Positions 8,140-15,807 of a DNA stretch of 32,435 nucleotides are shown here, in pieces. The notes under the pieces were generated by a model. That model did not search any database, had not been told where the DNA came from, and saw only the letters and a list, made by a program, of their open reading frames with translations. Source of the DNA: Sarea resinae (taxonomy: Eukaryota); assembly GCA_026026165.1 (NCBI GenBank), contig JAPEUD010000123.1, positions 1 to 32,435 on the forward strand. The letters are read 5' to 3'. How positions within the stretch are numbered: the first letter of the stretch is position 1; each line of letters starts with the position of its first letter. The translations under genes and the position numbers were made by a program.

Positions 8140-9320
8140 ATGCCCCCACAACTCAACCTCCCTCTCCGCCTCCGGGCCTCAAATCGTAAGTAGCATTCTC
8201 CATGTGCTAAAGGAACCCCTCCTCACCAACGATTGCAGTCTCTGTCTCCAGCATACCCTCCCAACGCTCCTTTACAAGCACCTCCCTCCTCTCCGCCAGT
8301 GGCGCCTCTCAAAAAAACAAGCACCGCGATTCCTATGCCCTGGCCCAAGCGCGCCAACGAAAGGCGGCCAACCTCGCCCGACAAGAAGAGCTTCGCCGCG
8401 AACGAGCCGCCTCGCTCGGCGACCCTGTCAGAGGCACCGATACGCCTTTCCTCCAATCCCTCGGCCGAGTCAACGTCAAGAAATTCGACCGGACCTTCTC
8501 CGCATCCAACCCCCCTCCGAATAGCAAAGCAGCCATCCCAGAATGGTCCAACGAAGAGGACTTTCAACTTCAAAAAAGTAGGAAAAGGGACATGACAGCC
8601 CCCTCGAAATCCGCACCCAAGACCGAAATCTCAGACGCCGAGCGAGCCCAGCGCATAGAAAAGCAAAAGGAAGCACGCCTCCGGAACGGACACCCGTGGT
8701 TCGGACACCGCTGGTACGAAGACCGCCCCGTTGATTTCAGGAAGCTCAACCACTCTCTCACGCGCGGGGAGCTGGAATCCGCCCTCAACTACTCCTACGC
8801 CCTCACGACGCCACCCCCCAGCAACCACACGACCTCGGACCCGGAGCTCGAATCCGCGCGCATCGCAGAGCACATAGAGCGCGACTCGAACGCGCGCGTG
8901 GCCATCGAGAAGATCGTGGCCCTCTCCGGCGGCTCGGGCGCCTCGCACCGTCGCTCCAACATCCAACACTGCATATCGTATTTCGGGCGGCATCACACGG
9001 ACCACATGCTCGCGCCCAAGCCGGCCTCGTCGGTGCCGGGGAACCACCCTACCAAGACGCCTCGCGCCGGTCCGGACACGGGCTCGCCCGAGGTGCAGAT
9101 CGCGATCCTGACGGCCAAGATCCAGGCGCTGGCGCGCCATCTCGCCGGCGTGGGCCGCAAGGACATGGTCAACAAGCGCAACCTGCGCATCCTCGTGCAC
9201 AAGCGCCAGAAGCTGCTGCAGTATCTCCGCCGAAAGGAACGCGGGGGCGAGAGATGGCAGCATCTGATCGCGGAGCTGGGGCTCACGGACGCGACCTGGA
9301 AGGGCGAGATCAGTCTATGA
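8140..9320 (+). CDS. MRPS28: Mitochondrial small-subunit ribosomal protein uS15m (yeast Mrps28-like)
   Basis: Exons 8140-8185 and 8239-9320 (intron GTAAGT..GCTAAA..CAG) give an Arg/Ser-rich presequence and YALAQARQRKAANLARQ in frame with the 8592 ORF. C-terminal S15 domain DTGSPEVQIAILTAKI..NKRNLRILVHKRQKLLQYLRRK. Confidence 0.9.
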
Positions 9321-9336
9321 TAGATAACGTGAGGAC

Positions 9337-10180
9337 TGGTGGTGGTGGTGGTGGTGGTGCATATATCAGATGTAGATACTTCCGTTGCCCCCCTTTATGT
9401 ATTATTTCTCCTCTATTCTATCATTTCTCGAGAAGAGAAGGAAAGCCAGCCAGCCAGCTAGCCAGCCAGCCAGCCAGCAAGTGAACAGCGTACTAACTGT
9501 ATAGCGAGAGGGCTACTACATGTACTATTACTACTACTACCATACCCAAGTTCCATACCTACTACCTCACCTACCTCACCTACCCTTCCAGTTGTCTCTT
9601 CCCCCCCCTCCCTCCCCCATCCATCCTGATAATCACACTTGACCTCCTCCTCCTTCTCCTCCTCCTCCTCAACCTCCTCAAACTCCTTAACTTCCTAAAC
9701 CTTAGCAAGCCTAGTACACCCAGTACACCAAGTGACCACCTACCTATACCTTCCTACCTACCTACTTCGTACATAGACAGGTTGACAAGAGGCGACAAGA
9801 GACACAATAAGAGTAGTAAACAAACAAACAAACAAACAAACAAACCTAGGCTAGCAGCTACTATCATATCTAGGTAAACAGCAACCTACCTACCTTACCT
9901 TACCTACCTAACCTACCTAGGTAAGCATTAACGGTATGAGGTATCTAAGGTATCTATGTTTTTGCACCGTTTTATCCTACTACTCTCTGTCTGTCTGTCT
10001 GTCTTAGAGCCTTCTCTTATCATAGCTAAGCAAAACACCTCACTTTAGGATACTACTTACTCTCTTGGAAACACGCTACAAGTTATACATAGCACTTCAC
10101 TTCACTTCCCCAATAGCGTCAAAAGTCTCTATTAAGTGATTGATTACAAGAATGTTGACAGACGAAGATGATGACGGCTG

Positions 10181-10211
<31 letters not shown>
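9337..10211. repeat. Microsatellite cluster ending in a C29 homopolymer
   Basis: (GGT)7, (GCCA)n, (TAC)n, (CCT)n, (AAAC)n, (ACCT)n and (CTGT)n runs; poly-C at 10183-10211. Confidence 0.9.
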
Positions 10212-10213
<2 letters not shown>

Positions 10214-11518
10214 CCAAAAAAAGAGAGACAGAAAAAGTCCACCCGCAAGACCAACAACAAGATGACCAGTCCCCGTTGCGCGCCGTCCCGTAGCGTTCTG
10301 CATCAACCATCAAGGGGCATCAGCGTGGCTGTTCTGGTTTTATCCGCACGTGTGAAGATCCCCACAATGAAAGAAAGGGCAGCGCGTTGCAGTATCACCG
10401 CGCAGGTAGGTGAGATTTGGCGCCCCCTACTATTTTGGGACGATCTGCATGGCTTCAGCGACGGCAGAGAAAGGAAGACCTGGTATCGATTGATTGCAGA
10501 AGATATTGTCTCCTGCTCAGTCTGTTAAGAGAGTAAAGACGGAGATGATAGGTCTAACGGGGATTGCTCGATTCGATACCAGGAGTCCAATTTGGGATCA
10601 GTCTGCAACCAAGGCAGTCTCAGAGCAAAAGATTCGCCGACCATGTCCGCAAGCGCTGTACATAACAGAGAAACAGAAAAGGCCGTAAGCGATGGGCGTC
10701 GGAAACCAACCCAAAGGGGTAGCGTCCCCTGAAGGACTTGCTCTTATTCGGCTACATATTGTATTCCGACAATACAGCAGATGGGCGTACGCAGATCCTT
10801 CCTAGAAATCTAGAAGGGTATCGGATAATCAGGGCATTTCGACGTCGCCATCGGTGTTGGTATCGGCAACTACTATGAGTATACCTTCGAGTTGCTGGGT
10901 TGACATCGTATCACTCTCAGAGTCGTAGGAGTGAGCCATAGGCTGGAATGTTGGCCATTGAATGGAGATTGACTTCTAGTCCATGTTCCTGCGGCGGCCC
11001 TACTGGTGATAGAATATTGTAGTGACATCGATTGGCCTGTCAATCTTGCTTTGCTTCTGAGCTTGCTGTCGAGAACTATTGCATCTCCTAGCCATATGAT
11101 AGTAGGTGTAGCCCTCAGGCATCTTGAAACTTTTAGGGTATGGCGATCCGCAGTGCCCATTTCGCTATTCACAGTGCCCATTCACACCATGTATTTCAGA
11201 ACGCATCATATTCTTGGGTCACTGATAGTCACGGATCGAGTGTATGTATGGTGGAAGCATTCCTGGACGGACTTCCTCATTGTAGCTAGATGCGGCAGCA
11301 ATCCACAGACGATGATATACAATAATGAGAAGGGTAGCAGCAGACGCCAAGTACCTAAGCATTACACGTGACCCTATCCATACTCCGGGTGCCCATCCAT
11401 GATCTGCTATGCTTTTTGCTCCCCCAGACGAAAGCATCGAAGTAATGGGACGGTGACGACAGCAAAGTGTTGATGATGCAACAGTGAAGACAACGCCGAT
11501 ACAAAGCGTAGGCCAGAC

Positions 11519-11824
11519 AGGTGGCCCACCACCCAATCACTGGCCGGGAACCCCAAGAGGGGCTCAACCGGTTCGATCATGAGCAACGGGTCAACCCAAT
11601 CCGCCAAGTGGGGGACAGTCATCAGCAATGACAGAGTCGACAGCAGTCTCAAGCCGCCAGCACCAGGAACCCCTAGGGGCTCGACTGGTGATGACGTCTC
11701 GGGACTGGCAATTGCCGACCCCGCCAAGCATCATCTGGCTGTCCCGGCCAGGCAGACAGCCGCGCTCAAGGACATCGGGAACCCCGAGGGGCTCGACCGG
11801 TGAGGCCTTGAGATGGTGCCTGCC
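11519..11824 (-). other. Three tandem structured-RNA-like hairpins sharing a conserved apical motif (probable 3'-UTR elements or ncRNA)
   Basis: Near-identical cores GGAACCCC-N2-4-GGGGCTCRACYGGT start at 11547, 11666 and 11778 (spacing 119 and 112 bp). Each is embedded in a longer self-complementary arm pair (~11519-11597, 11644-11707, 11751-11824). Confidence 0.7.
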
Positions 11825-11936
11825 CGCCTTACAGGAAAACTCTCGACAGCACGACCGAATGAAGAACAACAAAGAGTAGCGGGCATTCAGAATAAACGGA
11901 CCACCCACCACAAGACAACTCGCACACTGTTTGGCA

Positions 11937-14435
11937 TCACCATGGAAGAGCATTGAGCGCTTCCTGAACAACGGGGTCAGTCGTGTCCTCGGGCCACGTG
12001 ACAGGACCCAGCCCAAAAACTACATAGTCAGCCTCAGACATCTTGAACTCTGTGACCTTGGCCAACTCGGCTTCGACCTCCGCTTTCTCTTCAGCGGTCA
12101 ATGGAGACATGCTTTCAATAGGTGATGTAGAGACAAGGCTATTAGGAGACGTAGACTCCAGCTGAGGCACATCAGGTTCGATGAGCTGGCCATTGGCAGG
12201 TTCGATCAGCTGGCCGTTGGCAGGTTCGTCACCAATGTCTGAGCCAACAGTGGAGGTGGATAGACGGCTTGAGGCTCTCAACCCACTTGGCTGCTTAGGC
12301 TTGTACTTCTCGGCCTGAGACCTCGCACGAGCAAGGGCATCCGATGGCAATGATGCGTGGGCGGGCGTGGGCCTGGGTGGAGGGGGCTGAGTCCACGACT
12401 CGGATTTTGAACCTTCCATGCTCTCCGACGGCGTAGTGACTGTCACCTCAGGTACAGATGAACCCGCGTTTTGGGATGCTTGAGCTGGATTAATCTGAGA
12501 CTTGGCTGATTCTGCGGTCTGATCCGATGGCGTAGTGACGAACGAGAAAGCGGGCTTTTCAGTCAGCGGATCTGCACTGGCCTTGGCGAAAATGTTGTCT
12601 GTGATCGTAGCCGTCGGTGCTACCGCATCACCCCCGTTAGAGAGTTCTTCGTCACTATCGCTTGAATCGGAGTAGTCTGGAACCCGGAAACATCCTCTAT
12701 AATTTCTTTCCTCTGGAGGGATGCCGAGGTTCTTCCACACTTGGGCATTCTCTTTACCTTTCCAATCCGGTTCTTTACCTTTCCAATTCGGTTCATCATC
12801 TTCAGATGATGATGATGAGTCGCTATAACTTGGCGCACAAAATGTGCCTCCATAGTTTCGCTGTTCGGGAGGGACTTTTGCAAGATTCTTGGGAACCTTC
12901 TTGAATTTATGCTGCCACTCTGGAGGAACTTTATCCCAAGATGCAGGATGTTTCGCTGGGCGATCTGGAGAATCTGTATCTACCCTCTTCCTCTTCTGGC
13001 CGACAGAATGGGCTGTCTCATCGTCAGAGTTATCATCGTCTTCTACTGTCGCTTGCATGACCCTTATGTTTTGGGCCTTTCTTTCTTCTATGCGTTTGGC
13101 TCGGTCTTCTCTGGCCTTAGCCTCGGCCTCGGCTTTCTTTTTCTCGGCTGCAGCCTCACGCATACGCCTCCTCCTCCCATACACCAAGTCTGCCTTTATC
13201 AACATCTTTTTCTGGTCTTCCTCAATCTGGGCAGCCGTCCTCCTACTGGCAGCTTCAGCAAGCTTAGCCGACTTGGCATCTTCATTTGGTTCCGAGAACC
13301 GTCGATGACCTCGAGCCGCTCCAATCTTCTTTCTCTCGGTTGCAGCTTCACGCATGCGCCTCCTCCCATACATTGAATCTGCCTTTATCAACATGTTCTT
13401 TTGGCCTTCTTCAGTTTGGGCATCCGTCCTCTTGCTGGCAGCTTCAGCATGTTTAGCCGACTCTGCATCTTCATTTGATTCCGAGAACCGTGAATGACCT
13501 TGAGCCGCTCCAGTTGATGCATTTGACTTATCAGTTCCAGTAGCGGCTGTAGCTTGAGGAGTAGGCCCTGCGCGAAACCTGAAGCCAGGAATGATGCTCG
13601 CGAAGTTGATTCGAGGCACTGAATTCACCAGAGCACTAATGCCCCATCCTTGGCGACGAGGAGTTTCGGGGACTTCTTCCGGGGTGGCAGGTTGAACTCC
13701 TTGTGCTTCCTCTTTCGCAGGATCATTTCGATCACCCACAGGATGTCGTGCAGTACTTGTGGCAGGTAGTTTGCGTCTAGTCCTGCGTCGTGTGGGCGGT
13801 GGGCTTGATTGAGGCTCCGTATCGAGTCGTGCTCGTTGTTGTGGACGAGGATTCTGCTCCTCTTCCCCTTGAAACGCAGAGCGACGCTTGCGCGAACTTG
13901 CTAGAGGGGCGAGTTGAGGGTTGAAAAGCTGATGGTCTAAAATCAAGTTGATTAGAACCTCTCTCGGAAACATCTTGAGCTCATCCCGACTAAAATGTCG
14001 CATGGGGCCAATCATTGCCTTGGTCAGACTGTCGATGCTCTTGACCTCCTCAGGCGTATTTGACTTCCTCCGCAATGCTTTCATGATACGGGGTGTTGCA
14101 GGATTGTGAGGAGAAATGGCACTGGACACCATAATTCTAGAGAAAGAATTATGGGACTGGGGGGGGTCCAATGCCAGGTTTGTAGGAGGGGCCACTGGCT
14201 GTATTGAATTGATCTCACTCTTGAAGTTCTCCTGTCCACCTCTTTGCTCTTGACCGCTTGCGCTATCTACTACCTGGCCTTCATCATGGTCGGACCTCTG
14301 CTCTTGGTCTTGATCAGAGGTGGGTGGTGTGGGTTCGGTAGCCTTATCTGGCTTTTTCTTGCGTGTAGTACGCTTCTTTGGTGTTTCGAGAGATTTATAC
14401 CCCCCTGGGGACTGCGCCATACTGCGCGTCCTCAT
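11937..14435 (-). CDS. Uncharacterised ~832-aa low-complexity, probably disordered protein with internal tandem repeats
   Basis: Long uninterrupted ORF. The likely start is MRTRSMAQSPGG (ATG at 14435); the upstream in-frame 153 codons look like UTR. Contains basic NLS-like clusters (KRKR, RKRR), acidic Ser tracts and a C-terminal ALARARSQAEKYKPKQPSGLRASSR segment. Confidence 0.8.
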   Translation of the reverse strand: MRTRSMAQSPGGYKSLETPKKRTTRKKKPDKATEPTPPTSDQDQEQRSDHDEGQVVDSASGQEQRGGQENFKSEINSIQPVAPPTNLALDPPQSHNSFSRIMVSSAISPHNPATPRIMKALRRKSNTPEEVKSIDSLTKAMIGPMRHFSRDELKMFPREVLINLILDHQLFNPQLAPLASSRKRRSAFQGEEEQNPRPQQRARLDTEPQSSPPPTRRRTRRKLPATSTARHPVGDRNDPAKEEAQGVQPATPEEVPETPRRQGWGISALVNSVPRINFASIIPGFRFRAGPTPQATAATGTDKSNASTGAAQGHSRFSESNEDAESAKHAEAASKRTDAQTEEGQKNMLIKADSMYGRRRMREAATERKKIGAARGHRRFSEPNEDAKSAKLAEAASRRTAAQIEEDQKKMLIKADLVYGRRRRMREAAAEKKKAEAEAKAREDRAKRIEERKAQNIRVMQATVEDDDNSDDETAHSVGQKRKRVDTDSPDRPAKHPASWDKVPPEWQHKFKKVPKNLAKVPPEQRNYGGTFCAPSYSDSSSSSEDDEPNWKGKEPDWKGKENAQVWKNLGIPPEERNYRGCFRVPDYSDSSDSDEELSNGGDAVAPTATITDNIFAKASADPLTEKPAFSFVTTPSDQTAESAKSQINPAQASQNAGSSVPEVTVTTPSESMEGSKSESWTQPPPPRPTPAHASLPSDALARARSQAEKYKPKQPSGLRASSRLSTSTVGSDIGDEPANGQLIEPANGQLIEPDVPQLESTSPNSLVSTSPIESMSPLTAEEKAEVEAELAKVTEFKMSEADYVVFGLGPVTWPEDTTDPVVQEALNALPW
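13132..13512 (-). repeat. In-frame tandem duplication of ~189 bp (63 aa) within the uncharacterised gene
   Basis: GAAQGHSRFSESNEDAESAKHAEAASKRT...MREAATERKK is followed directly by GAARGHRRFSEPNEDAKSAKLAEAASRRT...MREAAAEKKK. Confidence 0.9.
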
Positions 14436-15807
14436 GATGACGATGATTTCAAACGACGAGGAAAGTGGTTCGCGTGTCGAGGCGTCGGATTGAAGCAGTC
14501 GAGGAAGTGACTTGTCGATATGAGGCGTGTCGGTCAAGTTCGATGACTCGGATGGAAAGTGCTGATCATTGGCGACGATGGTGGTGGAAAGTAACAAGTG
14601 ATGAAGAGAGAGATGATGTTGATGATGATGTGCGCCTGTCGTTGTTTTGTTTACCGAAAGAAGATGAGAGAGATGATGAAGAGTGAAGGGCAAGGTAGAG
14701 ACGCGATGGGTGATGAGCGATGGGCGATGAGCGATGATGGTATCGTGGTGAATCGACTCCAAGTTACGAGTGCGACGGCGCTGGCGGGTACGAGAGCACT
14801 GCAGGATGCAAAGTGCCAGGACGCGGAGGTACCTCGTCTTGGCGACGCGAATCGAGTGTTTGGTTGTGTCTGTAGGTAGGGTGACATGCAGCACGCGTAC
14901 CTACTTCTGCATTCGGCAGAAAAGTCCTGGTGGAATGCGGAAAGGGAAGGCGGAGAGAAGAACGAGACGGAGATGAGGTACTCCGTAGTAGCAGCAGGTG
15001 ATGCTTACCGCGAGTCGAGTCGGTGTCGCGATGTTCTGAGACCATACGAAGACGAAACCTGGAAGGAGGGAAGAGTCTACGAGTACTGGACTGGGAGGTG
15101 GTCGTTGGCATCACGGCGTCGCTCCCTCGTTTTCGTTGTTTACCTTACGGCTGATGTTTCCGAGGCGATAACACAAACGTGCGTACATGTATGGTGAATA
15201 TGGCAGGCACCCACGAAGTCATTCACTGTCCACTAGGTACGAGATTCGCACAGCGGAGCTTTGACCGTATCGATTGCCAAATTGGCCCATTTCAAGCTCA
15301 TCGGTGGTCTTCCAGGATTGCGTTGACCGCAAACGTCAATAGGCATCTTGAAGCAAGTTGCACAGCTGCCTTACTGTCTAGTGTATCACTCATGAGGTAT
15401 CTATAAAGCTCACACGACTCCCCAAAATTACAATGATATTACACCTGGCAAGCGACGCTCCTTCCGACCAGTCAAGGTGACAGAGCCATGCGTACACAAG
15501 CCGTAGATTCTCGACGCTGCTCGATCCTGCTCCGGCCGGTATGAGCTGTCAGTGTCCTGCCGTGTGGTGCAGACTTCGAATGTATAGCAAGGAGTTCGGA
15601 CGCCCTTCATGAACAAGGCAGATCAAAAGAGACAAAACGCTGTGAATGGGTAAGGCCCGTTTCAGGCGGCGACAGAGTGTCAGGATAACTCACAAATGAC
15701 ATTTATGTGTGAGAGCTACAGCTCTCTTTCCAGATCCAGACGCCGATAGTGTGGATATGCAAGAACAAAGGAGATGCACCGATGGCGTTAGGAGTCGCCG
15801 AGAACAC

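Follow-up and report, generated by a model that had tools for sequence, protein, structure and literature searches.

Three tandem hairpins with a conserved bulged apex downstream of a Sarea resinae gene: probably a structured RNA of no described family

In the present study, we analysed an array of three bulged RNA hairpins (units A, B and C) encoded on the minus strand of a contig of the fungus Sarea resinae (JAPEUD010000123.1). The window is this whole contig, 32,435 bp in length, and the evidence comes from this one genome. The array is real, locally triplicated and strand-specific, and each unit carries a bulged apex; it probably represents a structured RNA of no described family, for whose function there is a moderate case. 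It is located 109-426 nt 3' of the stop codon of an upstream gene, P0002, on the same strand. A first-pass annotation of this DNA, made from the letters alone, had placed the array approximately 113 nt past the stop at 11937; this distance holds, and becomes 109 nt when the outermost base pairs are counted. We propose, with a probability of roughly 0.4, that the array is a cis-acting, protein-binding structured RNA within the 3' untranslated region (3' UTR) or the 3' flank of the upstream gene.

The three units share an apical motif, GAGCCCC-N(2-4)-GGGGTTCC, which is present in three copies, all on the minus strand (11778-11794, 11666-11682 and 11547-11565), and nowhere else in the 32 kb; none of 100 dinucleotide-preserving shuffles contained any match to it. 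Folding of the units revealed that each apex consists of (i) an apical helix of 6-7 bp with a G.U pair common to all three units, (ii) a 2-nt bulge on the 5' side (UC in A, UC in B and UU in C), and (iii) a helix of 3-6 bp beneath the bulge. The apical loops are CUCG in unit A, CUAG in unit B and UCUU (or CUCUUG) in unit C. The apex described in the first-pass annotation, with its UY bulge, its GAGCCC/GGGUUC stem including a G-U pair, and the loops CUCG, CUAG and CUCUUG, was thus seen in the folds and in the motif scan, as well as by a covariance model.

This model (R1, 34 positions) was built from the three cores (alignment A3), and the window was scanned with the filters off. The core of unit A, comprising the apical helix, the bulge and the lower 3-bp helix (11771-11804, minus strand), scored 49.9 bits (E 6.9e-11), that of unit B (11659-11692, minus strand) 49.3 bits, and that of unit C (11540-11575, minus strand), whose loop is 2 nt longer, 43.2 bits. 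Besides the three cores and their own reverse strands, the maximum score in the window was 11.8 bits (E at least 0.68), so that a search with a covariance model of the three units, proposed earlier as a check, found only these three. The cores are identical at 28 of 33 aligned positions between A and B, 28 of 32 between A and C, and 25 of 30 between B and C (83-88%; z 9.3, 6.8 and 4.4, respectively). All of the differences are compatible with the structure, i.e. they comprise a compensatory pair, the second base of the bulge (C or U), the loop, and the lowest core pair (C.A versus C-G). The compensatory pair, the single clean one, lies beside the bulge (G11798-C11777 in A, A11686-U11665 in B and G11569-C11546 in C), and this G-C/A-U/G-C series confirms the compensatory change that had been reported at that site. 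A perfect complementarity of 10 nt (CTGGCCGGGA/TCCCGGCCAG) was also observed between the 3' half of the unit C core (11540-11549) and the 3' tail of hairpin A (11742-11751); this could represent an alternative long-range pairing, or mere CCGG/GGCC-rich repeats.

Hairpin A (11746-11828, minus strand) contains 30 bp, with the loop CUCG and a 5' UC bulge, and its minimum free energy of -47.9 kcal/mol (z -3.58) was equalled by none of 200 shuffles. Hairpin B (11630-11725, minus strand) contains 38 bp, with the loop CUAG and a 5' UC bulge, and is the most stable of the three (-57.6 kcal/mol, z -6.42). Hairpin C (11511-11605, minus strand) has a 7-bp apex with the loop UCUU, a UU bulge and a 4-bp lower helix; its energy is -43.5 kcal/mol (z -1.60), and 13 of 200 shuffles were as good. 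When 6470 windows of 90 nt from both strands were ranked by GC-adjusted stability, B came first (z -3.53) and A fourth. The basal stems were assessed separately by shuffling only the 3' arm (1000 shuffles), which gave z -3.04 for A (11 of 1000 as good) and z -4.95 for B (0 of 1000). The pairings that had been worked out by hand also hold, namely 20 of 23 positions within 11644-11707 and, in unit A, the stems CUCAAGG/CCUUGAG and GGCAGGCA/UGUCUGCC.

Both the folds and the nature of the base pairs point to the minus strand. The corresponding plus-strand folds are weaker (z -2.39 for A, -1.16 for B and -1.16 for C), and for the 341-nt region as a whole the minus strand reaches -169.6 kcal/mol (z -4.64) and the plus strand -135.3 kcal/mol (z -1.82). 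Folding both strands against shuffled controls, as had been recommended, therefore gave minus-strand energies better than the shuffles for A and B, although not for C. Within the helices, G.U oppositions outnumber A.C oppositions by 20 to 3, or by approximately 13-15 to 3 when homologous positions are counted once (13 of 16, one-sided binomial approximately 0.01 by our own calculation). Since G.U pairs form only in the minus-strand RNA and the A.C oppositions would pair only in the plus-strand RNA, this excess favours the former, and the minus-strand preference noted in the first-pass annotation is borne out by both lines of evidence. Repeat-induced point mutation was considered as a source of the G.U pairs and rejected, the dinucleotide indices being unlike those expected from it (TpA/ApT 0.23; (CpA+TpG)/(ApC+GpT) 1.36).

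Analysis of sequencing runs showed that the whole stretch is present only in its probable source run, with small shares in a wood-decay metatranscriptome (X2) and in an air metagenome (X3). One strandless RNA contig of X2 (215 nt) corresponds to 11721-11935 with 1 differing letter, and spans hairpin A together with the spacer, stopping 2 nt short of the stop codon; another (244 nt, likewise strandless) corresponds to 11255-11501, downstream of the array, with 6 differing letters and 3 gaps. The sequence is thus present in the RNA library of an independent study.

Based on these data, the following sequence of events may be envisaged. A unit of approximately 115 nt would have undergone tandem triplication followed by divergence, and the array would be transcribed from the minus strand, lying in either the 3' UTR or the 3' flank of P0002. 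Each unit would then present one module, i.e. the 6-7-bp apical helix with its fixed G.U pair, a small loop, the 2-nt 5' pyrimidine bulge and a short helix, which in A and B would sit on top of a long stem. The bulged apex may serve as the recognition site of a putative structure-specific RNA-binding protein, and three copies could permit multivalent binding, with a predicted effect on the stability, translation or localisation of the mRNA, as in arrays of iron-responsive elements (IREs).

The closest functional analogy is indeed provided by the IRE array of the animal transferrin receptor, in which hairpins of the 3' UTR have a conserved apex, a 5' pyrimidine bulge at a fixed distance and free lower stems, and multivalent binding sets mRNA stability. 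The Sarea array shares this outline of several hairpins with a constant apex, pyrimidines bulged on the 5' side and lower stems of free sequence, which makes it an analogue of the IREs and not one of them. In an IRE, a CAGUGN hexaloop caps an upper helix of 5 bp, and a single C is bulged or lies in an internal loop, whereas the units described here have a UC or UU bulge, a 6-7-bp helix with a G.U pair, the loops CUCG, CUAG and UCUU, and far longer stems, and gave no Rfam IRE hit. To our knowledge, no system of iron regulatory proteins and IREs exists in fungi. A resemblance to the trans-activation response element (TAR) of HIV-1 is restricted to the pyrimidine bulge on the 5' strand and the G-A-G-C stem that follows it. 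TAR, which is found at the 5' end of viral transcripts, combines a UCU bulge of 3 nt with a CUGGGA loop of 6 nt; in contrast, the array has a 2-nt bulge and 4-nt loops, flanks a nuclear gene of a fungus on its 3' side and has no Rfam TAR match. The first-pass annotation had called this likeness superficial, and we agree, given that bulge size and loop both differ.

A number of observations weigh against the proposed protein-binding element. Stems of 30-38 bp exceed those of typical protein-binding elements, and the G.U excess could partly result from composition, the minus strand being U-rich and A-poor (24% versus 13%). The RNA contigs of X2 carry no strand, ends or expression level, and carry-over of DNA is possible; moreover, among the X2 pieces listed there is none over 11502-11720 (units B and C), nor any within the coding sequence beyond 12005, from which we draw no inference. 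The four variable positions of the core fall in one codon phase, as a constraint on coding would also produce, and by our count this would occur by chance in about 1 of 27 cases. In the 3'-arm shuffling, unit C yielded z -0.91 and was matched by 177 of the 1000 shuffles, and its basal stem is at chance level. Of the earlier statement that unit C pairs through a G-U-rich stem, the richness is therefore correct (10 G.U pairs), whereas the stem is no better than chance. Finally, the arms of A and B proved to be homologous, and the few single substitutions between them are split approximately evenly between those that keep and those that break a pair, a pattern indistinguishable from neutral decay.

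This homology was revealed by a rung-by-rung alignment that starts at the apex and proceeds towards the base of the hairpins, using our own dynamic programming procedure, which favours pairs, and by comparing the score with those obtained after shuffling the rung order. For A and B the alignment gave z 3.62, with 1 of 1000 order shuffles reaching the score, while the arms of A and C (z 1.13) and of B and C (z -0.36) are at random level. In a linear alignment of the arms, only the 3' arms of A and B were significantly similar (z 2.66). The outer helix of A, GGCGGG-CAGGCA/UGUC-UGCCU(G)GCC, corresponds to GGCGGGGUCGGCA/UGUCGACUCUGUC in B, and a CUUGAG segment is common to both. The rungs of A and B comprise 26 identical pairs, 2 cases in which one side has changed and the pair is kept, 1 compensatory change, 8 rungs paired in one unit only and 6 paired indels. 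MAFFT, applied to whole units, aligned only the core, and Tandem Repeats Finder did not report the array. The homology of the A and B arms implies that their pairing was mostly inherited from one ancestral hairpin and not independently maintained. The statement that the basal arms differ in sequence yet each pair with themselves must consequently be revised, as those of A and B are not independent, and the stems can be called covarying only in part: one compensatory pair, some changes that keep a wobble, and paired indels support this description, and the inherited stems of A and B and the chance-level stem of C do not.

These data are also what would be expected if the array were a functionless tandem duplication of palindromic DNA, which is the main rival explanation. 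An inverted repeat would have arisen once (e.g. by template switching during replication), been triplicated, and be decaying, with its RNA structure incidental. The homologous arms of A and B, the stem of unit C, and pair-breaking changes about as frequent as pair-keeping ones all fit such a history, as does the presence of GAUGA and CUUGGCGG in both linkers; moreover, no relatives were found in Rfam or among the metagenome matches listed. Replication template switching reportedly suffices to generate hairpins and to keep them in place in the absence of selection, and is a source of apparent compensatory changes as well (PMC8794818 / bioRxiv 10.1101/2021.04.15.439925). Uniform neutral decay, however, does not predict an apex that remains 83-88% identical in all three copies while the arms of C are randomised, a difference from which purifying selection on the apex can be argued; nor does it predict that all of the changes in the core should be neutral to the structure. 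The asymmetry between G.U and A.C oppositions and the energy gap between the strands are likewise unexpected under decay that is symmetric with respect to the strands. We therefore regard a functionless duplication as possible but doubtful. The idea of an RNA-level minus-strand 3' element, put forward in the first-pass annotation, finds support in the fold asymmetry, the G.U excess, the bulge, the structure-compatible core changes and the RNA contig over 11935-11721; independent covariation, which had also been invoked, is the part that is considerably weakened. If the apex is conserved at orthologous loci, the array would define a new RNA family, hint at a matching RNA-binding protein and provide a natural multivalent hairpin platform outside animals; if it is not, the array would be an example of a tandemly duplicated palindrome that mimics covariation. 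Structured cis-elements of fungal 3' UTRs are, as far as we know, poorly catalogued, and we are aware of none described for lichen-related fungi.

The length of the helices raises the question of whether the hairpins are substrates of double-strand-specific RNases (Dicer-like enzymes or RNase III), either as a polycistronic precursor of microRNA-like RNAs (milRNAs) or as sites of 3'-UTR cleavage that destabilises or terminates the mRNA. Hairpins A and B form near-continuous helices of 30 and 38 bp, interrupted only by bulges or mismatches of 1-3 nt, which is the shape of a Dicer substrate, and they exceed the approximately 20 bp required of a milRNA hairpin (z -3.58 and -6.42). Tandem long imperfect hairpins of 30-38 bp that derive from local duplication are also reminiscent of polycistronic miRNA clusters, and the only resemblances in Rfam, very weak ones, are to generic miRNA precursors (15-16 bits versus gathering scores of 88-90, i.e. 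far below threshold). The generation of fungal milRNAs from hairpins has been reported. The conserved portion of the array, however, is limited to the loop-proximal 15 nt or so on each side, which is shorter than a mature small RNA of 21-22 nt. Paralogous miRNAs usually conserve an arm and not the apex, whereas in the array it is the apex that is conserved and not a 21-22-nt arm. Yeast Rnt1 uses AGNN loops, and the loops of the array are not of this type. We consider processing by such RNases unlikely.

A further structure was identified around hairpin B. Linker 1, between A and B (11726-11745, minus strand), contains GGGACAGCCA (11745-11736), the 5' half of a putative clamp, and a C-box-like AUGAUG (11734-11729); both were recognised by an inverted repeat search, a motif/stem scan and folding. 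Linker 2, between B and C (11606-11629, minus strand), contains a D-box-like CUGA (11625-11622) followed by UGACUGUCCC (11621-11612), the 3' half of the clamp. The two halves pair at 9 of 10 positions, and the internal loop that they enclose, GAUGAU/UGA, shows the canonical order of a box C/D kink-turn (k-turn), i.e. C stem, 3-nt bulge, G.A, A.G, U.U and G-C. The boxes match the consensus at 6 of 7 positions (AUGAUGC versus the C box RUGAUGA) and at 4 of 4 (CUGA, D box). Together, the clamp and hairpin B (11745-11612, 134 nt) have a folding energy of -74.6 kcal/mol (z -6.24). This configuration of C and D boxes plus stem is the sole one in the 32 kb on both strands, and at least one such site appeared in 3.3% of 300 block shuffles, an optimistic figure in that the motif was noticed after inspection of the sequence. 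Both linkers carry GAUGA and CUU-GGCGG, which indicates that the boxes originated with the repeated unit.

Together with this clamp, unit B might constitute an independent stable box C/D RNA that binds Snu13 through the k-turn and is released from the 3' flank transcript, with A and C acting as flanking processing or decoy structures. The AUGAUG(C)...CUGA geometry, the abutting stem, the canonical k-turn loop and the uniqueness of the site in the 32 kb are in line with this possibility, as is the distance of approximately 103 nt from C to D box, which is within the normal range of small nucleolar RNAs (snoRNAs). The similarity to a box C/D snoRNA is nevertheless confined to the surroundings of unit B. 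In such a snoRNA, a single-stranded guide of 10-21 nt, complementary to rRNA or snRNA, lies upstream of D or D'. In the fold of unit B the entire interior, together with the bases that precede the D box, is paired in the closed 38-bp hairpin, which would leave no free guide, and no D' or C' boxes were apparent; a full set of C and D boxes is missing from units A and C. No snoRNA family reached its gathering score in Rfam, the one snoRNA row being sR28 on the opposite strand (10.4 bits versus a gathering score of 39), and the motif was picked post hoc. An independent C/D RNA is, in our opinion, improbable. A broader version of the proposal, which we offer as a speculative possibility, is that the array belongs to an undescribed class of fungal structured RNA, i.e. 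a 3'-UTR array of hairpins whose fixed apex combines a UY bulge with a GAGCCC/GGGUUC helix bearing an obligatory G.U pair, and whose middle unit is clamped by a k-turn of the box C/D type, and which could act both as a multivalent mRNA platform and as the source of a Snu13-bound small RNA derived from the 3' UTR.

The same AUGA...UGA arrangement at the base of B recalls a selenocysteine insertion sequence (SECIS). In selenoprotein mRNAs, a SECIS has an AUGA/GA quartet and, approximately 11-12 bp above it, an apical loop or bulge that contains unpaired AA. In unit B the quartet is present, but a helix of approximately 38 bp lies above it and there is no unpaired AA at the required distance. We know of no selenocysteine machinery in Ascomycota. 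A selenocysteine reading of the UGA stop of the upstream gene was rejected for want of SECIS geometry. Reading through this UGA would add 35 more codons (11829-11939, minus strand) and end at a UAA (11831-11829) directly adjacent to the base of hairpin A (outermost pair at 11828); this is probably a coincidence and does not support either readthrough or selenocysteine.

The units are spaced 112 nt apart between A and B, and between B and C by 117 nt when measured at the 5' halves or 119 nt at the 3' halves. The earlier argument that a spacing of 119 and 112 nt breaks any reading frame is correct for A and B. With the 117-nt spacing of the 5' halves, however, B and C share a reading frame as far as the loop, and on either strand the units are traversed by frames of 107-142 codons without a stop. 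Were the array protein-coding, the minus strand would specify the repeat peptide (S/E)PVEPLG(V/F)P, or the plus strand RGSTG, and the variable core positions that share one codon phase would be synonymous. An automatic caller has also placed a 74-aa plus-strand open reading frame (ORF), P0044, antisense over the array (11579-11803). Nevertheless, a minus strand with 13% A, and hence a plus strand with 13% T, is expected to contain long open frames. No Pfam family was found in the ORFs of either strand, and P0044, which is probably a spurious call resulting from the T-poor composition, had no homologue but itself among 5.8 billion clusters. When the minus-strand ORF was compared exhaustively with 1.84 billion representatives using HMMER, one hit was obtained (E 7e-6), which was deemed spurious; it is a bacterial protein, apparently of the RCC1-repeat type, that matches only through the repeated SPVEVLGV (SPVE.LGV). 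The units also lie in different frames, owing to the 112-nt spacing of A and B and the 2-nt insertion in the loop of C, and a comparison of 40 proteins of relatives with 9300-12100 (tblastn) detected no meaningful exon similarity (best E 1.1). We consider a coding function extremely unlikely.

Alternatively, the core could be a binding site that operates at the level of DNA and is present in three copies, e.g. for a dimeric transcription factor or as an insulator or origin element. It is near-palindromic, with the half sites GAGCCCC and GAACCCC, and it contains CCCCT/AGGGG-type motifs, as found in stress response elements; the purine/pyrimidine covariation is dyad-symmetric as well. A homodimer, however, would need neither the 2-nt insertion nor the G/A difference between the half sites, and both are retained in all three copies. 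As the bulge breaks the dyad symmetry of the DNA, its retention together with the asymmetry of the half sites fits an RNA hairpin better than a symmetric dimer site. In addition, the array is situated between two convergent 3' ends and not in a promoter, and the long arms and strand-specific G.U pairs would have no role at the level of DNA. A DNA site is thus very improbable.

With their palindromic structure and length of approximately 85-96 nt, the units resemble miniature inverted-repeat transposable elements (MITEs) or foldback transposons. MITEs conserve their termini and vary centrally, whereas in the array the centre is conserved and the ends vary, the terminal arms being the least conserved part. 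No target-site duplications were seen in the flanks of A, B or C, and the three copies in the 32 kb are adjacent. The read depth of the source run over the array is 350, equal to that of the single-copy flank, while nearby intergenic repeats reach 560-954. Dispersed copies with target-site duplications, which the first-pass annotation had named as the sign of a MITE, were therefore not encountered as far as the contig and the assembly allow. The adjoining intergenic part (9329-11307) is repeat-rich and of low complexity, with a G/C homopolymer tract at approximately 10175-10210, and contigs of the source run break here. An 83-nt segment (11050-11132) recurs in another part of the source-run assembly as a diverged copy with 11 differences.

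Searches for relatives were consistent with the view that the array is not a recognised fungal RNA family. In Rfam 15 nothing in the whole window reached a gathering score, and over 10800-12600 (E up to 10) there was no hit to TAR, IRE or SECIS. A scan of metagenomes with the pattern GAGCCCCTN{1,4}GGGGTTCCYG matched at least 120 loci. Among the matches listed, each locus contained one match, with no second loose copy and no comparable array, which is weak evidence of absence for a collection that is possibly poor in fungi; these loci are mostly GC-rich contigs, which we take to be bacterial. Two related GC-rich contigs (L049 and L115) combine a 9-bp stem, a UC bulge and the apex GAGCCCC...GGGGTTC with a subsequent run of T; they read as bacterial intrinsic terminators and were set aside as chance look-alikes. 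The listings returned by full-text literature searches, from which we judged, contained nothing resembling the array. Other candidates were also rejected. The sequence CUGAUGA recalls a hammerhead ribozyme, but GAAA and fitting stems are lacking and there was no Rfam hit; CNGG loops of the Smaug/Vts1 type, AGNN loops of Rnt1 and CGG-N-CCG sites of zinc-cluster proteins (compared with the sequence by reading) did not fit.

The gene upstream of the array corresponds to an ORF at 11937-14894 (minus strand), which was called as P0002 (11937-14435, minus strand), a largely disordered protein of 832 aa with the C-terminus ...ALNALPW and a UGA stop codon. It contains no Pfam family. Its relatives comprise only hypothetical proteins of lichen-forming fungi (Candelina, Candelaria, Pycnora and Circinaria) and Onygenales, with at most 54% identity across a quarter of the query. 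The gene itself includes in-frame tandem repeats (12173-12228 and 12751-12794), in which 24 nt repeated 2.3 times encode (I)EPANGQL and 21 nt repeated 2.1 times encode EP(N/D)WKGK. The protein also has a duplicated segment of approximately 50 aa (GHSRFSE.NEDA.SAK.AEAAS.RT.AQ.EE.QK.MLIKAD..YGRRR) and, towards the C-terminus, a motif common to the relatives (SWTQPPPPRPTPAHASLP...ARSQAEKYKPKQPSGLRASSRLS).

Converging on P0002 from the other side is a gene of the ribosomal protein S15 family (8211-9320, plus strand; Pfam PF00312, E 1.4e-23), which we read as the mitochondrial type. It bounds a gene-free interval of 2.6 kb, and the array is located at the P0002 end of this interval. The remaining ORFs of the contig represent nuclear housekeeping functions (ribose-phosphate pyrophosphokinase, an SPB4-like helicase, a SWIB-domain protein and S15), and no tRNA was detected in the window by ARAGORN. 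Another RNA contig of X2, over 15497-15787, jumps 59 nt (from 15634 to 15694), in keeping with the removal of an intron from the transcript of the neighbouring gene; 5 other letters stand at the joint, so that the match is imperfect.

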